From UHGV virus genome UHGV-0036034: a stretch of DNA of 26,061 nucleotides; one strand, given 5' to 3'. Below the pieces are notes generated by a model. The model had not been told where the DNA came from and did no database searches. It saw nothing but the letters and a program-made list of their open reading frames with translations. Each line of letters starts with the position of its first letter. The stretch's first letter is position 1. Source of the DNA: a virus. Shown piece after piece: positions 2,084 to 25,469 of this stretch. The position numbers were made by a program, and so were the translations under genes.

Positions 2084-4486
2084 TCACGCCCATGTCGCAT
2101 CTATGTAGAACGTTGGAGATGTAGTGGTGGACCCTTCAATCGATATTTGTCCTGTTGAAGCATTAATGGTGGCCATTGCCATGCCAAATGAAACGCCATC
2201 ATCAGTGAACGGTACAGGGACATTTTTGGTTACTTTTGGTCTGCACCACCTCGGAAGCGTTAGAACAGTATTGCCATTCGCAAATGAAGTGGCTGCCAGT
2301 TTAATATTAATTGAATTGGCAGTTAAACTTGACGGTGCCTGTACTGTTACGTTTGTTCCAGCCCACCATTGAACAGCTGCTCTTGGCGTGTAATCAACAC
2401 GCGACCACCAGTCGATAATGGCAGAGCAGATAATTTCCGCATACAGACGATACCCTAACTGGCTTTGGTGAATGTCATCACGCAGAAGTGGGTCGTATTG
2501 CGTGTTGAAATACTCTGGATATGGGGCCGGGAGCTGGTGAGTTGTTGTTACACAAATGACGTTATTGCCATATTTCATCATCTGGCGTTTACCAGCCTCG
2601 CGTAACTCCGCAACACCATCGTAATTTGCTGATGGCTGACCAGCCCCTCCAATAAATGACTGGCTATACCACATCCACGGCTCAACCCAAACAGGTACAC
2701 GCCCGAGACTGTTGCAATATAAGACAAACTCATCTATCAGTGCCGCCATATAATCGCCGTTTTGGTTTCCCTGCCCTTCGTTAGTTCCGGCAACCATAAT
2801 AACGATGTAAGCATCACCCGGCCCCTGAGCCTTCAGGAGATCTAACTGTTGCCTCATTGTCTGTCCGGCAACCGCCTTGTTTACAATGCTATATGAACGG
2901 TGTCCGTTCGCTCCATCCATTAATTGCGGAATGTACGAGCTGAACGCAGAAATGAAATCCTCAGCTGTACTATCACCGTGGATAAGGATATTAAGTGGAG
3001 GCTTACAGTGCACACCATTATCAGAGGTATAGCTAGTCACGCCAGTTACTCGTACAATCGTATTGGGAGCACTACTATTAGCTACAAATCCTACCTCGTA
3101 AACGTCACCTACCGCCGAAGTATCATATGGCAGTCTAAAGCTAACACCATTCATTGTAATTACAGCCCAGTTCTTTGACTGTAATGCCACCCCAATAGTA
3201 GCCTTACCGGGAGCGTAGGACAGCAACCCTCCAGGAAGTGAGAATGGAGAACCGTTTACTACCGCGCCTCCAATTGCTTTCTGCCGTACATCCCATTGTG
3301 GAGCACCAGGAGCGCCGTAGAACATCACCCATCCACCTGAGCACCGTAACACAATACCCACTTCATTAAGAGTATTAGACTCAGCACGAATATGTCCTGA
3401 CACATGCTCACCTACTGCAATGGGTACGAACAATCCACGGGTAACAGAATCGGGTAGAGCAAATAGGGCTGCCGTTTCGGAGCTAGCGAATAATGGACCC
3501 TGAGGCGTAAATGAATCCCCGTCCACTGCATAGACAACACAATCAGACCATTCCACTCGCTTCATGCGAATAGGGTTTCGGTTGAGGATGGCCTGCTTAG
3601 CCAGATAATCCACTTCTCCACCGGTTGTTGTGAAATTAAGATGGGAAAACTCAAAAGTGCATTCACCTTCAAACTTCAGCGACTTATAAAGCGAGTAAAG
3701 ATCGCTGTCGAATTTAAGAATGACGTTTTTATCAACGATTACACGGGAGTTTTGCAGATTTCCTGCCTGTGAGGCCGTTCCTGGTATTGTATAAGTTTTC
3801 TTTGTTGCAGAGTGGCAAGGGAAATAAACATAGCCATAGAGATTTACACTCTCCACCCATGCTGCAACAACGTTTGATTGATTGTAAGATGGCATAACGG
3901 TGATTGGTATCGGCTCAAATTTATCCACACCACCGATCTTTTTCCATCCGTCAGGCTGAGCAAGAAGAATCAGCACTTCACTGGCAGAAGCACTCGGAGG
4001 GAGAATGGCTATAGGCTGCCCACTGTCATCCCAGCCAAAAATCATATTCCGGCGACTTGATACCTTTGGCACCAGGTTTACACTGTTTTCAGGAACCCTA
4101 AGCGTATTTCTCTGAAGAGCACCGATGTTGAACATCGCATGCTGAATAAGCATGGTCAGGTAGTCGAATGCATCCTCATGGACCTCTGCAAAAAATTTCC
4201 CCTGATTTCTTAAATCAGTTTCCTGCACTGCTGGAAGGTTACGAGTGATTGATATTGTAATGCCTGGCAAAACAGGAGATGACGTAATAACGCTTCCACC
4301 GGAAGATAAGCCAGCACCTGTAACCATGTAATCTGTCCCCAGGCTCATTGGAGAAACAAGACCGTCAGCGGTTATTGTGCTTACATCAAGATCTGTGTCT
4401 TTAAAAATTCTGAAAGTATATGGGAATGATGTCGTGACTCCATTCCCGAGATACTCATTGTGGCTGATTTCGGTTGAGACTGTCAT
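2084..4486 (-). CDS. Tailspike with podovirus-type N-terminal tail-attachment domain and C-terminal SGNH/GDSL esterase domain
   Basis: 800-aa ORF with GGAG RBS 8 nt before the ATG. The N-terminus (MTVSTEISHNEYLGNGVTTSFPYTFRIF) matches the conserved pattern of T7 gp17-like tail-fibre/tailspike N-termini. The C-terminal part carries the SGNH blocks in order: GDS (NILIHGDSTAEDF, Ser about 506), GTNE (about 567-570), DxxH (DDIH, about 670-673). Confidence 0.85.
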   Translation of the reverse strand: MTVSTEISHNEYLGNGVTTSFPYTFRIFKDTDLDVSTITADGLVSPMSLGTDYMVTGAGLSSGGSVITSSPVLPGITISITRNLPAVQETDLRNQGKFFAEVHEDAFDYLTMLIQHAMFNIGALQRNTLRVPENSVNLVPKVSSRRNMIFGWDDSGQPIAILPPSASASEVLILLAQPDGWKKIGGVDKFEPIPITVMPSYNQSNVVAAWVESVNLYGYVYFPCHSATKKTYTIPGTASQAGNLQNSRVIVDKNVILKFDSDLYSLYKSLKFEGECTFEFSHLNFTTTGGEVDYLAKQAILNRNPIRMKRVEWSDCVVYAVDGDSFTPQGPLFASSETAALFALPDSVTRGLFVPIAVGEHVSGHIRAESNTLNEVGIVLRCSGGWVMFYGAPGAPQWDVRQKAIGGAVVNGSPFSLPGGLLSYAPGKATIGVALQSKNWAVITMNGVSFRLPYDTSAVGDVYEVGFVANSSAPNTIVRVTGVTSYTSDNGVHCKPPLNILIHGDSTAEDFISAFSSYIPQLMDGANGHRSYSIVNKAVAGQTMRQQLDLLKAQGPGDAYIVIMVAGTNEGQGNQNGDYMAALIDEFVLYCNSLGRVPVWVEPWMWYSQSFIGGAGQPSANYDGVAELREAGKRQMMKYGNNVICVTTTHQLPAPYPEYFNTQYDPLLRDDIHQSQLGYRLYAEIICSAIIDWWSRVDYTPRAAVQWWAGTNVTVQAPSSLTANSINIKLAATSFANGNTVLTLPRWCRPKVTKNVPVPFTDDGVSFGMAMATINASTGQISIEGSTTTSPTFYIDATWA

Positions 4487-4942: not shown

Positions 4943-4985
4943 TTGAAATTACCAAATGGAGTGCTTATATTTACCTTTGCGGTAA
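4943..4985 (+). promoter_or_regulatory. Promoter-like element with 15-bp inverted-repeat site (copy A')
   Basis: -35 TTGAAA (4943-4948), 17-bp spacer, -10 TATATT (4966-4971), then TTACCTTTGCGGTAA (4971-4985). The same inverted repeat could instead fold as a weak terminator hairpin for the 86-aa gene. Confidence 0.4.
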
Positions 4986-5126: not shown

Positions 5127-5288
5127 ATGAAAAAAGCATTTGCTGCACTGTTCGTTTTGTTGTCTCTGGTAGCTTCAACTCAGGCCTTTGCCGGTCGTTG
5201 TCAGCACGACAGCGACACTGCTGCTGACGGCTCCCGCTGCGGTGGGCGTTCTGCGGATTCCCGCCCTGGCGGCGGTGGCATTCGTTAA
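5127..5288 (+). CDS. Signal-peptide microprotein (53 aa)
   Basis: MKKAFAALFVLLSLVASTQAFA-GRCQHDSDTAADGSRCGGRSADSRPGGGGIR: textbook Sec signal (basic n-region, hydrophobic core, AFA-G cleavage motif) and a roughly 31-aa Gly/Arg/Asp-rich mature part with two Cys. No obvious RBS; possible upstream promoter TTGACG (5086-5091). Confidence 0.4.
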   Translation: MKKAFAALFVLLSLVASTQAFAGRCQHDSDTAADGSRCGGRSADSRPGGGGIR

Positions 5289-5310
5289 AAACAAGGCCGC
5301 GAAAGCGGCC
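5285..5310 (-). terminator. Intrinsic terminator of the minus-strand ejection/membrane-protein operon (convergent with the plus-strand cargo)
   Basis: GGCCGC-GAAA-GCGGCC hairpin (5295-5310), followed on the minus strand by TTGTTTTT. Lies directly after the stop of the 98-aa membrane protein gene. Confidence 0.55.
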
Positions 5311-5311
5311 T

Positions 5312-5323
5312 GTGACATGTCAC
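5312..5323. repeat. 12-bp perfect palindrome GTGACATGTCAC, copy 1
   Basis: Exact 12-mer. It overlaps the TGA stop of the membrane-protein gene 5320..5616 and abuts the terminator hairpin. Confidence 0.9.
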
Positions 5324-5616
5324 GTTCCTTTTCTGAATGATAGCCGTTCGAAAAATGATGACATTCCACCGCAGACAATAGCAAAGATGATCCCACCAAA
5401 GAAGAGAAGGCCAGCCTGCCACCACTCCCACCGCCATACATCCACAGCACCAACCATACCAACAATCGCTCCAACAAATGGAATATAGCTCACGATGAAA
5501 GCAATGGGGGCTGCAATTATCCAGTGCAATCCCCACCATGATTCAAGCCCAGCCATAATTGCTGCCAACTGAAAAAGACCAACGACGATATAAACAATGA
5601 ATCCTATAGCTTGCAT
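5320..5616 (-). CDS. Small Trp-rich integral membrane protein (98 aa, about 3 TM)
   Basis: AGGTGA RBS 6-11 nt upstream of the ATG. Three long hydrophobic segments (IGFIVYIVVGLFQLAAIMAGL, IIAAPIAFIVSYIPFVGAIVGMVGAV, LLFFGGIIFAIVCGGM). Last gene of the minus-strand operon before the terminator. Confidence 0.7.
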   Translation of the reverse strand: MQAIGFIVYIVVGLFQLAAIMAGLESWWGLHWIIAAPIAFIVSYIPFVGAIVGMVGAVDVWRWEWWQAGLLFFGGIIFAIVCGGMSSFFERLSFRKGT

Positions 5617-5811: not shown

Positions 5812-8286
5812 TTATTGCGGAGTGACATCCTGAGGTCGCCACCAGTATGTCTGATTAAACTCTTTCTTCGAACGTTGCTCCATTTTACGCAAATAGCCTG
5901 GTGAAAAATACTCCTGCATCTGGTTAAAGATCATATGATCGAGAGCCGCCTTTAAGTACCAGAGATTCGCACCGGGCATCAAACCTTTCCCCAGCTTCAC
6001 CAGATCACCACCAGTCTGCTCACTCTTCCCTTCCACAGCATTTAACGGTATGCCCTGAGCAATCTTCACTACGTCATCAACCAGACCAGCTACCGGGCCA
6101 AGCATCGACGCCAGCGCGCCGCTTCCGTACCTAGTGTGATCTGACAATAAAAAGTCACCGTAAAGGCCAAGGCCACCACCTTTCAGTAGAGCACCAAGCC
6201 AGAATTTTGCGGCACCTTCTCCTGTCATCTCTCGAGGATTACGACCAGACGCAAGGTCGTTAAGTTGCTGCGACAAAGCGCCAAGAATGGTCGTACTGGC
6301 AATAAACGTCGCAATATATGCCGCACGCCCACCAGCAGACGGCATACCCATAGCGCGTGACCAGTGACGCATAACAACCGAGATAGGGAACGATTTAAAC
6401 AGGAAAACACTTCTCGTTAATTCACCTTTCCATGTTCCACGCTGAATACCAGAACCGGTTATCAGTTGCTCACGAGCTCCCGGTGTAATAACAGCCATAT
6501 CAACTTCTTCAGTTACGGCACCGAGCAATTTACGCATTGCCTCAAATTTCACGCGCTCAGGCTCACCAAGATGTTTAACTGCTGAATCAGGGATACGCAT
6601 AATGCTTTCCGGTGTCAGCATCGTATTATTACCGTTCCCCCAGTCCTCCTGTTGCGCCAGCTTCCATACGCTCCAGTCTGTGTCAGTAATCCCTTTGCTT
6701 TTCAGGATACGAAAATCAGAGTCATCGAGGCTACGAAGGTCTGGTGTCCGTGACACTACTTCTCCCAGGCTTCCCATCATGGTTACGCCATAGGCGCGCT
6801 TGTGCGCATCTGACCATGCTGTAAGCCCACTGGCACGCATTACCGCCGTTGCCGCCCAACGAGACACTGACGGCCCCATATTATCCATCGCCCAGCGGTT
6901 AACGCTGCCAAGTAGAGATTCCATCGCCAGACCAGCGCGGCGCGCCCGCGCAAGTTCTGTACGGTTCGTTGGGTCCATAGCTTCAAGCTGGTTGCGGAAT
7001 AACTGGTTCATTGGAAGGTTGGTAACCTTCGCAGACAGATACATGGTTCCAAGATCAGAGAACGATGACAGCAACGCGGATCCGAGTCTGCTGGCAACCA
7101 GCCAGTTGCGGATATTGTCAGACCATCGCGCGATGTGCGGATTCGCTACAGGCTGTGTCTTTCCGGAAATAAAGTTGTACAGATTCTCTGTGTTGTTCGC
7201 CAGCCGCTCGACTTTACCGGTTTTACTCGGGTTAGCTGTTGCCGTTTCTGCCTTCACCTGATCAAGAAGAGAGCGGAAAACATGATCGGGGTTTGGGCCA
7301 TATGTTTCCACCAGTGCAATATCTTTACTGATACCTTCCAGGTGACCGACCATGATTTCCCATAGAGAGCGATCACCATAAAGTTGTTGATATTGGAGAT
7401 AGGAATCTGCATCTTTGAAATGTATCTGTCGTGATGCATTACCACGGTTAGCACGTGCGCCGGAAATTCGCATTCCGGTATCAGTAAGCTTATTCAGCCC
7501 ACCAGTAGCGATCGTGTTATAAGCCTCTCCAAGAAATGCAGACAACTCGGCATCGTTCATCAGTTGTCCATCGGCTCGGGTATAATATTTGCGATCCAGC
7601 TTACCTATAACATCGCCAACCCACTTATCCTTTGATACCGCCCCAACCTTTTCCATAGAATGATGTTGAGGGATCCCCCAGTTTTCGAGATAGCCAATGT
7701 CCCCACCAGCATCATTAAACCGGCGGCGCAGCAGCTCTGTAACTTCTCTCCACGCCTTAGCACCTTTTCTTGCTTTAGCATTGCCAGTATTTTGCCCCCG
7801 CATTTCATATACCAGGTCACGTACGCCCGCTTCATCTTCAAACAGACCAAAAAAGCGAGGATCAACTGCTTCGAATGCCTCCTGCAATTGACTCAATGCA
7901 TAATCACGGGTGGCTTTTGTTCTGGATTCAACAGAGAGGAAATTAGATTTACCGTCTGCATTAAAAGCTATAGTACGGTTAAGAGCGCCAAGTTTCCCAT
8001 CAGCCCCTTGATAGCTATTGATAAATTTATCCAATCTCTGACGCGCGGCTATAGTGAGAGCCACACGACGTTTCTTTAATGCCGCTTCTCGCTGTAATTC
8101 TTCAGATGCCAATTGTGCTGCTCGATATAGCCGCTCTGATTCGGAAAGTTGTCGCCACGACATCGGATCATCACGAGCAATGGAGCGCATATTTCGATAA
8201 ATGCGGTCTTCAATGTTCTGTATTTCTCGCGCCGTTAACGTGCGCTGCGCCGCCTGCTGGACCGCTTGTATACATTCCTGTCTCAT
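5812..8286 (-). CDS. Large internal virion / ejection-type protein (824 aa)
   Basis: GAGG RBS. Third of three large genes between the tail tube genes and the tailspike, the position held by internal core/ejection proteins in short-tailed phages. No catalytic motif recognised. Confidence 0.6.
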   Translation of the reverse strand: MRQECIQAVQQAAQRTLTAREIQNIEDRIYRNMRSIARDDPMSWRQLSESERLYRAAQLASEELQREAALKKRRVALTIAARQRLDKFINSYQGADGKLGALNRTIAFNADGKSNFLSVESRTKATRDYALSQLQEAFEAVDPRFFGLFEDEAGVRDLVYEMRGQNTGNAKARKGAKAWREVTELLRRRFNDAGGDIGYLENWGIPQHHSMEKVGAVSKDKWVGDVIGKLDRKYYTRADGQLMNDAELSAFLGEAYNTIATGGLNKLTDTGMRISGARANRGNASRQIHFKDADSYLQYQQLYGDRSLWEIMVGHLEGISKDIALVETYGPNPDHVFRSLLDQVKAETATANPSKTGKVERLANNTENLYNFISGKTQPVANPHIARWSDNIRNWLVASRLGSALLSSFSDLGTMYLSAKVTNLPMNQLFRNQLEAMDPTNRTELARARRAGLAMESLLGSVNRWAMDNMGPSVSRWAATAVMRASGLTAWSDAHKRAYGVTMMGSLGEVVSRTPDLRSLDDSDFRILKSKGITDTDWSVWKLAQQEDWGNGNNTMLTPESIMRIPDSAVKHLGEPERVKFEAMRKLLGAVTEEVDMAVITPGAREQLITGSGIQRGTWKGELTRSVFLFKSFPISVVMRHWSRAMGMPSAGGRAAYIATFIASTTILGALSQQLNDLASGRNPREMTGEGAAKFWLGALLKGGGLGLYGDFLLSDHTRYGSGALASMLGPVAGLVDDVVKIAQGIPLNAVEGKSEQTGGDLVKLGKGLMPGANLWYLKAALDHMIFNQMQEYFSPGYLRKMEQRSKKEFNQTYWWRPQDVTPQ

Positions 8287-18898: not shown

Positions 18899-19600
18899 TT
18901 ATTTGCCATAGAGCACTTCGGCCGCACTACGCTGGCCTTCATTACCACCGGTGACCATGCCATCTTCAGACATCGCCTTTCCGATTTTCACGAACGTTTT
19001 GACCAGATCAGGGTGATTACCCAGCCCGGTGGTGTTCAGATATTCTTTGAGTTCAGGTGTCCCGAACTGGTCAAGCGCACGCTGTGCGGCGCTAAGGTTA
19101 GAAATCAACTTGTCGCCACCGATTTCTTTGTCAGCTTTTACATCCGCAGCCCACTGCTCGGTTGTTTTCTGCCAGGCTTCTGCCTGGCGCTGCTGAACAC
19201 CTGCCAGAATCTTCGGATAAGCATCAACCAGCTTTTGCGCTTGCTCGTTGGTCAGGTTAAGTTCTCGCGCCACCGGCTCGAATTCCTTCAACGCTTCTGT
19301 ATCCAGCTCTACGCCTTCGGCAGCCTGAAACTCGTACTTCTCAGGAGCACCCTCTGGTTTATCGCCGTTCTTTTTTTCACCCTGCTTATCGTTTTCAGGC
19401 TTTTTGTCATCAGCAGGTTTATCGCCATCAGCAACAGGTTGTGGCTTATCACCTTCCTGTTGTGATGGATCACCAACTGGAGCAGGGTTATCACCTGCAT
19501 GCGCTGACGGTTCTGACGCAGCCGGAGCTGCCCCGCCATCGGCTGGCTGCTCATTGCAAAGACGGCGATACAGCAAACGCTCAAATAAATTCATGATCAC
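18899..19600 (-). CDS. Scaffolding protein
   Basis: 233 aa, highly acidic and Pro/Lys/Glu/Asp-rich low-complexity N-terminal half with a helical C-terminal half. Sits between portal and capsid genes; its start overlaps the portal stop. Confidence 0.65.
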   Translation of the reverse strand: MIMNLFERLLYRRLCNEQPADGGAAPAASEPSAHAGDNPAPVGDPSQQEGDKPQPVADGDKPADDKKPENDKQGEKKNGDKPEGAPEKYEFQAAEGVELDTEALKEFEPVARELNLTNEQAQKLVDAYPKILAGVQQRQAEAWQKTTEQWAADVKADKEIGGDKLISNLSAAQRALDQFGTPELKEYLNTTGLGNHPDLVKTFVKIGKAMSEDGMVTGGNEGQRSAAEVLYGK

Positions 19601-21570
19601 TCCTGTTCACTGGCCTCTTTGGCCATCTTCAAATACTGTTCAGGGCAATGAGCCATAACGCGCTGAAACAGTTCCAGCGCCAGATTGCGTTGCCCCTCAT
19701 TAAATGCCATTGCCATAGCGTCCATCGGTGAGATAGCGGAAAACACACGGCCTTTCTCCAGCACCGACCAGACAACGCGACGCCCCTGTTCACTGCTCAT
19801 GACAAAGCGAATGTCATCAATTTCACGCTTCGCCATGTCACGTTGCTTACGGGCGTTTTCTTCTTTCAGTTGATCGTCTTCGTAATCTGTCATTGTGATT
19901 GCCCCCCCCTGACCACTAACTGCATTCGCCATAGCTGACAAAACACTCGGATCCGAAGTTTTAGCTTCGCTTAGCGTCTTGGCACCCTGTGCCGCCGCCA
20001 TCCCCATCGCCATCATTTGTTGCTGCTGTTGCTGCTGTGCCCGTTGCTGGCGAGCCTGCTCAACCTGTTCCTGCGGAACAATAACGGTTGGAGACACTCC
20101 GGACATATCAGCGAATGCATCGATCGCCTGATCAACGTTGAGTTTGTCGAGAGCTTCTGGTTTCGCTTGCGCAAGTTGACCAATGAAGTTAACCGTGGAC
20201 GCCAGACTGGACAGGCCGATAGACTTCTGCGCCTGAGCCATGACGGAAATGTATTCGACCTTCAGGGGCATGCCTTCCATCGCGTCAGGCGGTGGCGGCA
20301 GCATGTTTTTACGCACCATCATCGAGAAAGCGCGGTCAATGAGAGGATTAAGACATTCGTCGTTCAGACGCTCCAGAACCGGCCCCAACATCAGAAGTTT
20401 TTCTTCTTTCATTTCGATCACCGCTTCAACAGGCATCGAGCGGGTATTGATGTTCTGCAACATCATGAACAGATCGACAAAGTAGGCGCTGTTAATGATT
20501 TGACGAGTGTCCTGAATGTCTGCCACCAAATCTGCTGTACTGGGGTTAACCAGATAAGCAGGCCTGAAGCCATCCTGACCAGTAATCTGATCGATATACG
20601 TGATGTCGCCAGGAAGAAGGGAGGCTCGCTGATTCTTGAGGGAAGTCGGAGCAACCATCGGCGGATTGGTGGCTTTATCAATCAACTGCGACTTGCGCTT
20701 CTGGAGAAGCTGCAATGCCTTAACAGGTCCAAGAGCCAGCATACCCGGGCATGATGATCCATAAACATCTTCGCCGTTAACTTCCCAGCGCGGAGCCATA
20801 ATTGGAAACTCATCGAATCCGGACTCACGCAACAACTTGTCGTTATCGCCACCAACCTCGTAATAAACCGATTTGAATGGCTTGTTCTTGCTATCCAGCT
20901 TCGATGTATCGCGGTCAATGTTCGGGTAAACCGAGTGCATCACTTCAATCCACTTCTCGTAGGTGCCGCTTTCCCACATGCTTTTTACGTATTCGCTGAC
21001 GTTATTTAGCCCGAACTCCTGAACAAGCTGACGAACAGTCATAGAGAACTTGCGAAAACAGGTGTCCACACTGCCACGAGGTGAGTTAGCCAGGTAGTAA
21101 CTGCCTATCGGGAATGGCATTGTGCGAATAATGTCCTCGTCATCCTCCAGCACCGCCATTGCACCAGTGCTGTATGTTCCGAGGCTTCCGTATAACTGCG
21201 GCAGCGACTGATAGAGATTCGACTTATTGAACATATCGTTCATGCGGTTCTGCACCGCCTCAAGCCACAACTTAACAGGGCCATAATCCATCATTTCAGG
21301 ATCTGGCGTAGCCAGACGAAACCACGGACGCGCGGGGCTTGTGATGCCTGACATCATGCCGCTGGCGAGAGTGCGCGCCGCCATAGTCCCGGTCGAATCA
21401 ATAATGCGTGTATTCCGTCGATCGTTACGATTGACCTCAGAAGTCAGAAAGCGGGAACCACGCGGGTTGATGTAATCACTCAACTCGCGCCAGTGCGGCT
21501 CGAACGACTGACGCTCGCTTTCAAGTTGTGCGAACTGTTTGTTCAATCGCTCTTTAGTTGTTTCCGCCAT
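19597..21570 (-). CDS. Portal protein
   Basis: 657-aa ORF placed after the terminase and before scaffold and capsid. Size and position typical of a portal. Confidence 0.75.
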   Translation of the reverse strand: MAETTKERLNKQFAQLESERQSFEPHWRELSDYINPRGSRFLTSEVNRNDRRNTRIIDSTGTMAARTLASGMMSGITSPARPWFRLATPDPEMMDYGPVKLWLEAVQNRMNDMFNKSNLYQSLPQLYGSLGTYSTGAMAVLEDDEDIIRTMPFPIGSYYLANSPRGSVDTCFRKFSMTVRQLVQEFGLNNVSEYVKSMWESGTYEKWIEVMHSVYPNIDRDTSKLDSKNKPFKSVYYEVGGDNDKLLRESGFDEFPIMAPRWEVNGEDVYGSSCPGMLALGPVKALQLLQKRKSQLIDKATNPPMVAPTSLKNQRASLLPGDITYIDQITGQDGFRPAYLVNPSTADLVADIQDTRQIINSAYFVDLFMMLQNINTRSMPVEAVIEMKEEKLLMLGPVLERLNDECLNPLIDRAFSMMVRKNMLPPPPDAMEGMPLKVEYISVMAQAQKSIGLSSLASTVNFIGQLAQAKPEALDKLNVDQAIDAFADMSGVSPTVIVPQEQVEQARQQRAQQQQQQQMMAMGMAAAQGAKTLSEAKTSDPSVLSAMANAVSGQGGAITMTDYEDDQLKEENARKQRDMAKREIDDIRFVMSSEQGRRVVWSVLEKGRVFSAISPMDAMAMAFNEGQRNLALELFQRVMAHCPEQYLKMAKEASEQE

Positions 21571-21852: not shown

Positions 21853-21896
21853 TAGACAGTTGACATTTAACGCACGAATTATTACCTTTCAGGTAA
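21853..21896 (+). promoter_or_regulatory. Promoter-like element with 15-bp inverted-repeat site (copy B)
   Basis: TAGACA (21853-21858) and consensus TTGACA (21860-21865), about 17 bp, then TTACCTTTCAGGTAA (21882-21896). Lies in an AT-rich divergent intergenic region. Confidence 0.4.
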
Positions 21897-22218: not shown

Positions 22219-22295
22219 GTGGCATTAGCTCAGTCGGACAGAGCAACCGCCTTCTAAGCGGTTGGTCGCAGGTTCGAATCCTGCATGCCACGCCA
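22219..22295 (+). tRNA. tRNA-Arg (anticodon UCU), reads AGA
   Basis: 77-nt cloverleaf read directly: acceptor GTGGCAT/ATGCCAC, U8-A9, D stem GCTC/GAGC, anticodon stem ACCGC/GCGGT, loop CTTCTAA (anticodon TCT), 5-nt variable loop, T stem GCAGG/CCTGC with TTCGAAT loop, discriminator G, encoded CCA. Resembles the host argU-type tRNA. Confidence 0.9.
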
Positions 22296-22338: not shown

Positions 22339-22380
22339 GGCGGTGATGGTTTCCCTTGAAGGACTATCACCGCCCTTTTT
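22339..22380 (+). terminator. Intrinsic terminator downstream of the tRNA
   Basis: 9-bp stem GGCGGTGAT / ATCACCGCC followed by CTTTTT. Confidence 0.6.
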
Positions 22381-22458: not shown

Positions 22459-22482
22459 GCCCGGTTCGCCGGGCATTTTTTT
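22459..22482 (+). terminator. Hairpin plus T7 tract immediately upstream of the 22494 gene RBS (terminator or attenuator)
   Basis: GCCCGG-TTCG-CCGGGC followed by ATTTTTTT, then the AAGGTGAG RBS and ATG at 22494. Confidence 0.55.
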
Positions 22483-22493
22483 AAGGTGAGATT

Positions 22494-22850
22494 ATGAACG
22501 ACCAGCAAATCGAAAAAGAAATCGTTGAGAAAGGCAAAACCGCTCCGCGAGTTACGCCTCAATATATCGAAAGCATCATTCTTGAAGAGCATTTCTTTAC
22601 TGCTTATGACGGCATTCGTGCTGCCAATATGGGCGTTGGCGATTCATGGACAGCGCATAAATCTACAGACCTCCTGACTTTCTGCGTACTGGTGCTGAAG
22701 AATGGCTTCACCGTCACCGGAGAAAGCGCCTGTGCAAGCCCGGAAAACTTTGATGCAGAAATTGGTCGGAAGATTGCCCGGCAGAATGCTGTAAACAAAA
22801 TCTGGATGCTCGAAGGTTACTTGCTGAAGCAGAAGCTAAGCGAGCAATAA
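22494..22850 (+). CDS. Small conserved phage protein (118 aa); possibly N4 gp49 / Sf6 gp66-like family (recalled from memory, unverified)
   Basis: Strong RBS AAGGTGAG. Plus-strand gene inside the minus-strand structural block. Protein MNDQQIEKEIVEKGKTAPRVTPQYIESIILEEHFFTA...NGFTVTGESACASPENFDAEIGRKIARQNAVNKIW. The family assignment needs a profile search. Confidence 0.7.
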   Translation: MNDQQIEKEIVEKGKTAPRVTPQYIESIILEEHFFTAYDGIRAANMGVGDSWTAHKSTDLLTFCVLVLKNGFTVTGESACASPENFDAEIGRKIARQNAVNKIWMLEGYLLKQKLSEQ

Positions 22851-22854
22851 CACC

Positions 22855-22866
22855 GTGACATGTCAC
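22855..22866. repeat. 12-bp perfect palindrome GTGACATGTCAC, copy 2
   Basis: Exact 12-mer, 4 nt after the TAA of the 22494..22850 gene and 4 nt before the terminator hairpin; about 75 nt past the terminase large subunit stop. Confidence 0.9.
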
Positions 22867-22870
22867 AAAC

Positions 22871-22898
22871 AGCCAGCCTATGAGCTGGCTTTGTTTTA
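22871..22898 (+). terminator. Intrinsic terminator of the 22494..22850 gene
   Basis: AGCCAGC-CTATGA-GCTGGCT hairpin followed by TTGTTTTA. Confidence 0.6.
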
Positions 22899-22940: not shown

Positions 22941-24416
22941 TTAAGCATAGGGATCGTAATCTGTGATGGCCTTGCCTTGCTGGTTCTGCTGACCGGGAAT
23001 TCGCAGACGCTTCGACACAGGGAACGCAAACGTCAGCAGTAGCGCATCGCCTTTACCAGGAGAACGCCCAAGTCGCTCTTTGATATCTTCCTTCGGTTCG
23101 ATAACGATTTTACCGTCCACTCGAACTTTGTACTCTGCTGCCGACAGGTCGTCCGCTGTTTCCTGGTCATCAAGCATGCCGCCCAGCCTCAGCCATGTCT
23201 TGCATGAGTTGAACATCTCCCCACGCTTGTTGAGCATCTGCGGGTCAGTAGACGCGCCACCGAACTGAACAAGTTGCCATGTACGACCCCAGCCGTCACC
23301 GATTGACTTCAGACCAGTTCCGTAACCGAAGTCGATGAACACTGCGTCAGCCTGGTACTGGTCTTCAAAGTCAGCGATACGCTTCGCCATAATCAGATCG
23401 TCAGTGGTCTTGTTGCCGGTCCACAGCACCTTACTATGCAGCCCCTGCCGCAGGTATATCACAGCGTCATCAACACCGGAGTATGCCGGGTCAACGCCGA
23501 TTATCACCGGAGCATGTGCAACCTGCGCAGCGGTTACCACCCGTTTCATTGCCTCGTCAGTAAGGCCGGTAGGGATAAACTGCAATTCAGATGCATCCGG
23601 GAATATGCCGCGCACACGGATTTTAACGAAGTCGCTGTCTTCCCCGTAGTCATCAACCCATTTCTGCAACTGCTGTTTGTTAGTGCCTTCCACCGTCCGG
23701 CTGTCAATCTGCGCAGTTTTCCAGCGGTGTTTATATTTGCGGAAACATTCGCGAAAACGCCCGGTGTTACGTGTAGGGTTTCCGAACGCCACCCAGATAA
23801 TCTCAGTGTCTTCGTCCGTAAGCGCACCCTCGGCAACTTCCCACACCAGATCCGCAATGTTCGACGCTTCATCAAACACCACGATGATGCGTTTGCGCTC
23901 GTTGTGTAGTCCGGCGAATGCCTCGGTGTTGTGCTCAGACCAGGGGATTGCGTCAGCTCGCCACCGCTTGTCGTGCCCAGGATCATTGCTGTACATCGCG
24001 GTAGCGGTACAGGTAAACCAGTCTTTCGTGATAGCAAGGTTTGACCACTTGATAATTTCCGGCCAGGTCTTCGTTCGTAGCTGGTTGTCGGTGTTGGCGG
24101 TCACCACGACCTTACAATCCTCGCAAGTGGACATGCCCCAGTTGATCAGCATTGAGATGAATGCGGATTTACCAATACCGTGACCAGAAGCACGTGCCAG
24201 CATAAGCGGCTGATAACGCGTCTCTGGATTCTGCAGGTGATCACGTATCTCTCGGAACGCATCGGCCTGCCACTGACGTGGGCCGGTGGCATGTGCCAGT
24301 TCAGTCCCCTCTTCCCCCCACGGGAACGCATAGAGGGCATAGCCAAGCGGATCGTGAGTGAACCCTGCAATATCCTCGATTAACTGCTCTTCAGGAGATA
24401 ACGCTGTATCTGTCAC
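22941..24416 (-). CDS. Terminase large subunit
   Basis: 491-aa ORF with Walker A-like P-loop (ARASGHGIGKS) and Walker B-like IIVVFDEAS in the N-terminal ATPase half, and acidic nuclease-type residues in the C-terminal half. ATGA overlap with the small subunit. Confidence 0.85.
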   Translation of the reverse strand: MTDTALSPEEQLIEDIAGFTHDPLGYALYAFPWGEEGTELAHATGPRQWQADAFREIRDHLQNPETRYQPLMLARASGHGIGKSAFISMLINWGMSTCEDCKVVVTANTDNQLRTKTWPEIIKWSNLAITKDWFTCTATAMYSNDPGHDKRWRADAIPWSEHNTEAFAGLHNERKRIIVVFDEASNIADLVWEVAEGALTDEDTEIIWVAFGNPTRNTGRFRECFRKYKHRWKTAQIDSRTVEGTNKQQLQKWVDDYGEDSDFVKIRVRGIFPDASELQFIPTGLTDEAMKRVVTAAQVAHAPVIIGVDPAYSGVDDAVIYLRQGLHSKVLWTGNKTTDDLIMAKRIADFEDQYQADAVFIDFGYGTGLKSIGDGWGRTWQLVQFGGASTDPQMLNKRGEMFNSCKTWLRLGGMLDDQETADDLSAAEYKVRVDGKIVIEPKEDIKERLGRSPGKGDALLLTFAFPVSKRLRIPGQQNQQGKAITDYDPYA

Positions 24417-25009
24417 TGATTACTATCCTGACGTTCTTTGAGTCGCTTCCTGGCTGCTGCTATGCGATCAGCAATTGTCACATTCACATTAACATCCAGA
24501 CGTTCTTTGAACGCGTTGACATCAACATGCTTACCAATCAGCTCAAGGTTCTTCACCTTGTCAGGCCATTTAATTTTTTTGAGGATTGTCTCTATCGAAT
24601 CCTCGTTCATGTTCATGATGGTCGATGACAGATCAAAGCCACTAAGCGTAGTGCGCCAGATTTTCGGCCACTCGCGGATTGGCTTAAGGCTCCCATCGTC
24701 GTTGAGGATGTCGATCACGTCCATCTGGTCGATCTCCACCAGGCGCATGAGAACGTAATCAGCACTGACGCGCATTCGTTTGTTGCGCTCCTCCATCAAC
24801 TCGGCAATCCGTTTTTGAATGCGTTCATCGCGCATCATGACACTGGCTTTAACTGCCGCTGTATTTGGGGAGAATCCTGCGTTAATCGCTGCCTGAGTCT
24901 GGTTTTCAGGCGTTTTGATGTATGACTGGCAATAAGCCTCCTGCATTGCTGTGAGCGGCTTAAATTGCGTTGATTTGCGTTTATAGGTTTTAGGTTCAGC
25001 AGGCATCAT
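24413..25009 (-). CDS. Terminase small subunit
   Basis: Start taken as ATG 25009 or 25006 (MMPAEPKTYKRK...) with GGTGG upstream, rather than the track's TTG at 25087, because a terminator hairpin and tandem repeats lie in between. Helix-rich basic protein immediately upstream of and overlapping the large subunit. Confidence 0.7.
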   Translation of the reverse strand: MMPAEPKTYKRKSTQFKPLTAMQEAYCQSYIKTPENQTQAAINAGFSPNTAAVKASVMMRDERIQKRIAELMEERNKRMRVSADYVLMRLVEIDQMDVIDILNDDGSLKPIREWPKIWRTTLSGFDLSSTIMNMNEDSIETILKKIKWPDKVKNLELIGKHVDVNAFKERLDVNVNVTIADRIAAARKRLKERQDSNQ

Positions 25010-25016
25010 AACCACC

Positions 25017-25048
25017 GTGGTAATAGTTACCGTTGTGGTAATAGTACC
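25017..25048. repeat. Tandem direct repeat GTGGTAATAGTTACC / GTGGTAATAGTACC in the terminase leader
   Basis: Two copies with an 18-bp period (25017-25031 and 25035-25048). Each contains GGTAA..TTACC half-sites in the opposite arrangement to the 15-bp motif. Confidence 0.6.
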
Positions 25049-25050
25049 AT

Positions 25051-25078
25051 GCAAAATAAAGCCGCCATAGTTGGCGGC
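25051..25078 (-). terminator. Intrinsic terminator separating the upstream small genes from the terminase/structural operon
   Basis: GCCGCC-ATAGTT-GGCGGC hairpin (25061-25078), followed on the minus strand by TTTATTTT. Confidence 0.55.
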
Positions 25079-25119
25079 AGTATTCAAAGTCCATCAAATT
25101 CATCATGCATAATCTACTC

Positions 25120-25131
25120 GTGACATGTCAC
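25120..25131. repeat. 12-bp perfect palindrome GTGACATGTCAC, copy 3
   Basis: Exact 12-mer overlapping the TGA stop of gene 25128..25469, about 30 nt before the terminator hairpin upstream of the terminase small subunit. Confidence 0.9.
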
Positions 25132-25469
25132 ACTATTAATTTCGTTTCATGCCAGCCTTTGGTCACCCAGCATTGCGAGTCACCACTACACGGGCATGAA
25201 TTCACAGGAACTCTCTCGCCGCACTTACCGCAACGTTTTCTGCTGATCGATTTTATACGCCCGCGCACGCGTGCATCATCCTGGCGGATCAGTAACGCTA
25301 TATACTCACCAAATTCGTAAGGCGCACGCCCGGGGCGACGCGTGGCGCAGTTCCGCTCCAGCATTTCAATTTCCTGAGCATCAAGCACAATCTCCAGCTT
25401 ACGTACACCGGATGCAGCTTGTCTGGCTCTCTGAGCGGCTTTGCGCTCTGCTGCTGATTTAGCCATCAA
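25128..25469 (-). CDS. Small basic protein with C-terminal Cys cluster (113 aa), possible DNA-binding or zinc-ribbon protein
   Basis: Basic N-terminal helix region (AERKAAQRARQAASGVRKLEIVLDAQEIEMLE) and C-terminal CGKCGERVPVNSCPCSG. Start overlaps the upstream gene by 11 nt. Confidence 0.55.
   Translation of the reverse strand: MMAKSAAERKAAQRARQAASGVRKLEIVLDAQEIEMLERNCATRRPGRAPYEFGEYIALLIRQDDARVRGRIKSISRKRCGKCGERVPVNSCPCSGDSQCWVTKGWHETKLIV

Follow-up and report, generated by a model that had tools for sequence, protein, structure and literature searches.

A palindrome at transcription-unit ends of epsilon15-like phages as a candidate operator of the gp49/gp46 protein family

Why does an epsilon15-like prophage carry one and the same perfect palindrome at the 3' ends of three genes, each time next to an intrinsic terminator? 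The question is raised by UHGV-0036034, a viral DNA of 26,061 nucleotides (hereafter the window, meaning the whole stretch analysed), in which a preliminary description had pointed out three exact copies of the 12-mer GTGACATGTCAC. We found exactly three in the whole window, at 5312-5323, 22855-22866 and 25120-25131, as described, and no near-copy with up to two mismatches elsewhere in it. The three copies share a 14-mer, CGTGACATGTCACA, in the minus, plus and plus orientations, respectively. The low chance expectation claimed at the outset stands for this particular sequence, which is expected 0.0022 times per window under a first-order Markov model, and a palindromic 12-mer of any sequence occurred twice in 2 of 300 simulated windows. 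The count taken alone is weaker than it had seemed, since some 12-mer occurred three times in 31 of the 300 simulations, and it is the comparative data that decide.

By megablast, the window belongs to the phiV10/epsilon15 group of temperate podoviruses (genus Uetakevirus) and represents an Escherichia coli prophage, with 96-97% nucleotide identity to phiV10-like phages and ~77% to Salmonella phage epsilon15. At least 80% of it is present as a prophage in 280 of 5426 complete E. coli genomes (~5%). Epsilon15- and phiV10-like phages are in use as reporter and typing phages. The window is reversed relative to the phiV10 record, and the late genes therefore lie on the minus strand. Gene positions were assigned by comparison with annotated phage records, which places terS at 24413-25087, terL at 22941-24416 and the portal gene at 19597-21570, all on the minus strand, the virion-protein genes reaching down to 5320 on the same strand, the tail fibre gene at 2084-4486 and the lysis genes at the left end of the window. 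A moron island in the terL-portal interval harbours a tRNA-Arg gene (anticodon TCT; 22219-22295, plus strand), neighboured by two strong plus-strand terminators (22339-22374 and 22459-22474).

Copy 1 (5312-5323) provides, with its internal TGA (5322-5320, minus strand), the stop codon of a gene for a 98-residue hydrophobic protein (5320-5616, minus). This gene occupies the position of epsilon15 gp18 and phiV10 p21 (phrog_3075) and is the last of the virion-protein operon, in agreement with the earlier proposal that copy 1 ends an operon. The motif is abutted by a terminator (5286-5311, minus; AGGCCGC-TTTC-GCGGCCT and a T-tract), whose hairpin, running from 5311 to 5294, starts 0 nt from the motif and has a U-tract in the minus direction only. 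Converging on copy 1 is a 53-residue membrane-protein moron (5127-5288). Among the sigma-70 matches of the window, the best (TTGAAA-17-TATATT, 10/12; 4943-4971, plus) points at this moron and abuts a CI-type operator. Copy 2 (22855-22866) starts 4 nt past the TAA of a p03-like moron gene (22494-22850, plus; Pfam PF13876, the N4 gp49/Sf6 gene 66 family) that is antisense to the late genes, at a convergent junction with terL. The terminator of the p03-like gene (22871-22898, plus; AGCCAGC-CTATGA-GCTGGCT and TTGTTTT) has a hairpin at 22871-22890 that begins 4 nt past the motif; in the terL direction, its U-tract is no more than partial. As the order of stop codon, motif and terminator runs on the plus strand, copy 2 belongs to the p03-like gene and not to terL. 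Copy 3 (25120-25131) contains the stop codon of a gp49-family gene (TGA at 25130-25128, minus), in a register identical to that of copy 1. Here the terminator, located between the gp49-family gene and terS (25053-25078, minus; GCCGCCA-ACTA-TGGCGGC and TTTATTTT), has a hairpin from 25078 to 25061 that begins 41 nt past the motif. Read along the strand of the ending gene, all three sites thus show the order stop codon, motif, terminator. The preliminary observations that the copies lie at gene 3' ends, that two of them use the internal TGA and that terminators are close by (0, 4 and 41 nt from the copies) are all borne out. We nevertheless rejected the motif as an integral part of the terminator, because it folds apart from the GC-rich hairpin and has no share in its stem or U-tract, because the distance between the two ranges from 0 to 41 nt and because most contexts in other genomes have no terminator.

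The same three junctions are occupied by the motif in six more Uetakeviruses, namely epsilon15 (exact copies at 2142, 19517 and 39612), phiV10, Tyrion, SPN1S, 65FD and BUCT554. The comparison with relatives that had been proposed thus finds the motif at the same places, not scattered, even at the ~77% identity of epsilon15, an outcome that speaks for a function. Across the distinct contexts compared, the motif is 99-100% identical versus 54-64% for the non-coding flanks, the tolerated variants being GTGACCTGTCAC and GTGACATGTTAC. The overlap with the gp49 stop codon seen at copy 3 is also found in epsilon15, Tyrion, SPN1S, N15 and many others. In phiV10, two copies are exact, and site 3, which is split across the ends of the record, reads GTGACATGTTAC, with a mismatch in one half-site. 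Of the relatives examined, the closest two, NADC1036 and TL-2011b, have no copy 2. Both the dispensability of copy 2 and the mismatch at site 3 of phiV10 count against the operator model proposed below. In TL-2011b, a unit made of the motif and the AGGCCGC hairpin sits after a different gene, Ant.

Outside of the Uetakeviruses, the motif is inherited together with one gene. In BLASTP comparisons, gp49 is the only epsilon15 ORF common to phages ZF40, N15, Yersinia vB_YenM_42.18 and Vibrio K308, any other ORF reaching at most one of them, and the motif is present in all four. Three exact copies of the 12-mer are present in the Pectobacterium myovirus ZF40 (gp22, 67% identity), one of them 2 nt past the gp22 stop codon. 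The siphovirus N15 (gene 46, 35% identity) has three copies of GTGACYRGTCAC, and its GTGACTGGTCAC overlaps the TGA of gene 46 in the register found in this window. K308 carries three GTGAC(R/G)CGTCAC copies in 23.7 kb, and the P2-like phage vB_YenM_42.18 a single motif copy. We extended the comparison to 25 loci from different Enterobacterales species, retrieved by a three-sequence profile search of genome contigs (protein identity 50-86%). They contain 32 motifs in 449 kb, versus 0.43 expected, and in 18 of the 25 a motif is found at a distance of 0-14 nt from where the homologue ends. Another 45 viral loci (43 N15-like and 2 K308-like) have 97 motifs versus 0.76 expected, with a copy at the homologue stop codon in 43, i.e. 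the N15-like ones. The latter also share two more conserved motif positions, one inside repA and the other upstream of the antirepressor operon. In a reverse test, 120 viral fragments of 2-15 kb were chosen solely because they contain TGTGACATGTCACA, which covers a subset of the motif forms; 32 of them encode a gp49-family protein on the same fragment, and the ORF that most often ends at the motif is precisely that protein. As for the p03-like protein (PF13876), we considered and rejected it as the binder, since N15, ZF40 and K308 do not encode it.

The palindrome thus moves between unrelated phages together with the gp49-family gene, and it is therefore most likely the DNA site of the corresponding protein. 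The motif is conserved, co-inherited with this gene and placed at its 3' end and a few other junctions, and it is from these correlative features that we infer binding. According to the preliminary description, no feature that could be named explained the palindrome; what had been missed is that the gene terminating in copy 3 encodes the likely binder.

The putative binder is a protein of 112 residues (25128-25466, minus; ORF 25128-25469) of the epsilon15 gp49/N15 gp46 family, which matches phrog_536 (PHROG 536) with an E value of 2e-54 and has no match in Pfam, NCBIfam or PDB sequences. Its homologues epsilon15 gp49 and phiV10 p55 are annotated as 'transcriptional regulator'. It has a basic, arginine-rich N-terminal helix and a cluster of Cys residues; C40, C79, C82 and C99, as well as a core made of R43, P49-Y50, E54 and L59-I60, are invariant in both family alignments. 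Comparison with ribbon-helix-helix proteins (Arc/MetJ/CopG) gave scores below significance and no Pfam match for this fold, and no sequence or detectable fold similarity was found to the Q families of the lambda, 21 and 82 types. Using tblastn, we identified homologues in 154 phage records of varied architecture, including epsilon15 gp49, ZF40 gp22 and N15 gene 46, and a profile search yielded about 209 family clusters at 50% identity. Its members occur in podoviruses, myoviruses and siphoviruses with hosts that range from Vibrio to Escherichia. We looked for Uetakeviruses devoid of gp49 that might serve as natural knock-outs and found none. A large DNA methyltransferase gene (phrog_116/23072) ends within the gp49 homologue in ZF40 (locus L008, 12444-14941) and in several lambdoid prophages (L099, 7854-10339; L108; L114). 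The overlap suggests that the two genes are translationally coupled and that there may be a functional connection with methylation. The frequent presence of a methyltransferase gene before gp49 homologues is left unexplained by the operator model. We also considered the 'gp46' of the NAR688 lysogen proteome as evidence of expression in lysogens and rejected it, as the supplement shows this protein to be the CB repressor, not the homologue of N15 gp46; NAR688 does encode such a homologue, with a motif at its stop codon. Among the papers covered by a full-text literature search, we found none that mentions the 12-mer or the motif or that characterises the gp49/gp46 family, and the element is not mentioned in the ZX5 'regulatory protein' paper.

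The architecture of the site indicates how it may be recognised. The full site reads Y-GTGAC-N2-GTCAC-R. The GTGAC/GTCAC half-sites are kept between clades whose proteins are 32-37% identical and whose genome architectures are unrelated, whereas the two central bases depend on the clade, being AT in Enterobacterales, TG in N15-like phages and RC or CC (AC, GC, CC) in Vibrio phages; CT is also among the centres observed. At the flanks, a pyrimidine precedes each half-site on either strand. All three copies in the window have C...A flanks, a pair that is impossible in RNA, and a 12-nt RNA hairpin would have a free energy of -1.2 kcal/mol (z about 0), no better than that of shuffled sequence. In N15-like phages, the variant with an asymmetric centre occurs in both orientations relative to transcription. 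Taken together, the invariant half-sites, the variable centre, the Y/R flanks and the negligible hairpin indicate that the palindrome is probably read by a symmetric dimer on double-stranded DNA.

The placement of the motif over all genomes points to the ends of genes. Among 222 distinct contexts, it lies at most 15 nt from a stop codon at co-directional or convergent junctions in 97, inside ORFs such as N15 repA and cII-like genes in 60 and in divergent intergenic regions in 15; these contexts are not independent by descent. There are 2-4 sites per genome. A terminator starts within ~45 nt in 72 of 270 contexts, versus 5% of random positions and 6.6% of positions after ORF stop codons, and the motif-terminator arrangement is also found outside of the Uetakeviruses, in Pantoea, Rosenbergiella and Photorhabdus prophages. 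The link with terminators is not obligatory, given that ~73% of the distinct contexts have no terminator nearby and that 60 of the 222 are inside ORFs. At a few places, the motif abuts ribosome-binding sites, namely those of N15 gene 47, K308 terS and one more K308 gene. As the sites are found at 3' gene ends and few are at divergent promoters, which would be uncommon for a regulator of initiation, the protein probably acts on elongating polymerase.

Some lineages place the motif elsewhere. In epsilon15-like prophages of Providencia, Proteus and Morganella (L104, 17605; L105, 17936; L107, 17412), it lies between the genes for a Bbp16-like cement protein and a gp9-like protein, its central ATG being the start codon of the latter gene, and a second copy provides a TGA stop codon ~1 kb upstream of gp49. 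In two prophage lineages (L008, 7622; L109, 6865), the motif is found within cII-like activator genes, in the frame xDMSx and ~65 nt before the stop codon. In lambda, the antisense oop RNA ends at the equivalent position.

The region between copy 3 and terS contains elements that are not part of the motif system. Going 3' from copy 3, the terminator is followed by an extended -10-like element, TGnTACTAT (25041-25049, minus), a CI-type operator and terS; the -10-like element, TGGTACTAT, and the operator, ATTACCACAACGGTAAC, together span 25026-25049 (minus). The TGnTACTAT element is conserved directly after the gp49-terS terminator in most Uetakeviruses, and the epsilon15 record annotates a repressor site at the place homologous to the CI-type operator. 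The probable start codon of terS, judged by homology, is the ATG at 25006 (MPAEPK...). The TTG at 25087, which begins the longest terS ORF and corresponds to the phiV10 annotation, would make the gene run through the terminator. From this succession of a terminator, a -10-like element and a CI operator, it appears that the terminator closes the early-right operon and that terS is transcribed from a separate, CI-repressed promoter. Sites of the form TTACC-N5-GGTAA at 4971-4985, 21882-21896 and 25027-25041 match the immunity-repressor operators annotated in epsilon15 and are found at homologous places, before the tail-fibre region, the gp3/portal unit and terS, which suggests that a CI-like repressor acts directly on the late units. 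The palindrome was itself rejected as an operator of the immunity repressor, since the operators annotated in epsilon15 have another sequence, ATTACC-N5-GGTAAT, and the immunity region has no copy of the 12-mer. We likewise rejected GTGACA as a -35 element: the spacing to -10-like hexamers fits in the epsilon15 and Pantoea contexts only, and such a role is impossible at sites 1 and 2. Finally, in BUCT554 (L007, ~8190-8258) and in L092, L093 and L098, a LexA-box promoter, TACTGT-N8-ACAGTA, whose -35 element is separated from the gp49 motif by 2-7 nt, comes right after this motif and drives a gene inserted between gp49 and terS.

On balance, we think it probable that the palindrome is an operator of the putative binder encoded at 25128-25466 (minus), located at the ends of transcription units, where we favour a role as a block or insulator. 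A symmetric dimer would recognise both GTGAC half-sites, one operator being retained at the end of the binder's own gene and two or so more elsewhere in the genome. In this window, the three operators, each between a stop codon and a terminator, would mark the ends of the early-right operon, the p03 moron and the virion-protein operon, and the bound protein would meet elongating RNA polymerase at these boundaries rather than control initiation. It might thereby act as a bidirectional, 'stoperator'-like block or insulator that backs up one-direction terminators. At sites 1 and 2, both of them convergent junctions, the U-tract of the hairpin is complete for one direction of transcription and not for the other. 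A symmetric bound protein there could stop the opposing polymerase, which is why we prefer a boundary or roadblock role. We infer the sign of the effect, a block over read-through, less firmly than binding itself. Speaking against the model, a roadblock would be redundant for sense transcription when placed upstream of a working terminator, and no antisense promoter is known at site 3. Among the roles put forward in the preliminary description, that of a site for a transcription-termination or antitermination factor remains the best reading.

The main alternative to a block, which we regard as unlikely, is that the same protein and DNA site let polymerase pass the adjacent downstream terminator, in a delayed-early to late switch similar to that of lambda Q. 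Repeated where the virion operon ends, the same action would carry transcription into the tail-fibre and lysis genes. The succession of regulator gene, site, terminator and terS does mirror that of lambda Q, qut, tR' and the late genes, the Uetakeviruses have no recognisable Q homologue, and sites 1 and 3 are both upstream of late-strand terminators. Furthermore, the motif followed by a terminator is found 12-41 nt past the regulator gene in Pantoea-type lambdoid prophages, where it precedes NinB, as well as in Rosenbergiella and Photorhabdus loci. However, at site 2, where the terminator is on the antisense strand, read-through would run against terL. The apparent promoter of terS, i.e. the -10-like element and CI operator found after the site-3 terminator, weakens a pure Q-like mechanism at that site as well. 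In addition, ZF40 and N15 already carry Q-like proteins, many sites have no downstream terminator and the regulator resembles no Q family. To our knowledge, there is no precedent for a DNA-bound factor acting terminator by terminator.

It is less likely still that the motif works as RNA, in the form of a protein-bound GUGA-CAUG-UCAC hairpin that displays a UGA stop and an AUG start codon and controls translation or coupling at gene junctions, or interferes with the terminator hairpin in the manner of RAT or boxB. Consistent with such a function, the TGA of the motif serves as a stop codon in many lineages, the central ATG is the start codon of gp9-like genes in the Providencia, Proteus and Morganella prophages, the motif lies 12-19 nt upstream of start codons in K308 and N15, and an arginine-rich helix and a Cys cluster are present in the protein. 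Against it, the predicted stability equals that of shuffles, the stem shows no compensatory changes and is not extendable by the C...A flanks, and the 'loop' differs by clade, with loss of the AUG. The N15-like repA site has its asymmetric centre reversed relative to transcription, and several sites, e.g. those before terminators, have no obvious translational role. A boxB- or RAT-type element proper was rejected, because the hairpin is unstable, its loop varies and its stem is invariant without covariation.

The motif had also been proposed to be a recombination linker at module boundaries. It is very unlikely to be such a linker or part of a mobile terminator cassette, in which case the link to gp49 would reflect the ancestry of the cassette rather than binding. 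Variable DNA does begin right past the motif in the loci with LexA-box cassettes (BUCT554, L092, L093 and L098), the motif and the AGGCCGC hairpin have together ended up after Ant in TL-2011b, and copies 2 and 3 bracket the terminase genes. Nevertheless, a linker needs neither a palindrome nor base-exact invariance amid drifting flanks, and no recombinase is associated with it. Moreover, the half-sites persist between clades of 32-37% protein identity and unrelated architecture, and the motif is also found within genes such as repA and the cII-like ones and elsewhere in N15, ZF40 and Vibrio phages, always with one gene.

Least probable of all, and by our estimate close to negligible, is a target of a methyltransferase or restriction enzyme, as initially suggested, or of a host transcription factor: the motif includes ACATGT, rare outside of it in the window (1 versus ~6 expected), and two GTSAC sites, and a large DNA methyltransferase gene is directly upstream of the gp49 homologues in ZF40, L099, L108 and L114, but the CATG core is lost in the N15-like and Vibrio clades, where the GTGAC half-sites alone are kept, phages normally avoid restriction sites rather than keep them at fixed junctions, methyltransferase genes adjoin the regulator in some lineages only, belong to differing families and are far from gp49 in Uetakeviruses, and hosts that span Vibrio to Escherichia make a single host factor unlikely.

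Returning to the operator reading, a family without a Pfam model or a characterised member gains a candidate DNA target, Y-GTGAC-N2-GTCAC-R, and a small regulon is defined for each phage. It is tempting to speculate that gp49/gp46 proteins represent a new class of elongation regulators, a DNA-tethered, terminator-proximal switch between stopping and read-through that loads from palindromes ahead of terminators and at gene junctions and is set for each unit, although we hold this to be rather improbable. If true, such a switch would be distinct from N, Q, put RNA and RfaH/ops. In Uetakeviruses, for which no late regulator is known, it would determine the change from early to late transcription. 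An action of the protein at terminators would provide a new way to insulate or link phage transcription units. If it is a simple repressor, the protein and its operator would be a compact orthogonal pair with clade-specific centres, usable in synthetic biology.

Regulators with dispersed operators are known, and several systems invite comparison. The stoperators of phage L5 are short sites bound by gp71, dispersed in the genome in small gaps at gene junctions and often overlapping stop or start codons. They are located downstream of promoters and thought to affect elongating polymerase. Like them, the sites described here are short, conserved and repeated at gene junctions rather than promoters (97 of 222 near stop codons). 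In contrast, L5 sites are asymmetric, biased in orientation and number ~30 per genome, whereas here a perfect palindrome occurs 2-4 times per genome, and its asymmetric N15 variant is found in both orientations. Furthermore, the L5 binder is the immunity repressor, unlike the putative binder here, which is encoded by a late-position gene of an uncharacterised family. The arrangement also resembles that of lambda Q with QBE-qut and tR', in that the last early-right gene encodes a regulator and is followed by a DNA site, an intrinsic terminator and the late genes. However, there is no homology to the Q family, the sites number three, including one on the antisense strand, and no promoter position at the motif holds consistently. 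At sites 1 and 2, the adjoining hairpins leave no space for one, the -10-like matches past GTGACA are inconsistent between lineages, and the terS promoter apparently comes after the terminator. Membership in either group thus fails, because the binder is not an immunity repressor and the site is palindromic, and because neither Q homology nor a promoter is found. As for ribbon-helix-helix repressors (Arc, Mnt, CopG, omega, ParD/MazE), the gp49/gp46 proteins differ from them by an extra C-terminal module with conserved Cys residues and by operators that mark 3' gene ends instead of covering the promoter of the protein's own gene. The operators of P1 C1, an immunity repressor, are asymmetric 17-bp sites at promoters. 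As in P1, a single regulator would act on few, dispersed and highly conserved operators over separate units; unlike in P1, the palindrome is symmetric and at gene ends, and the putative binder is not the immunity repressor. What is unusual here is the terminator-proximal, stop-overlapping placement of the sites, together with a candidate binder from an uncharacterised family.
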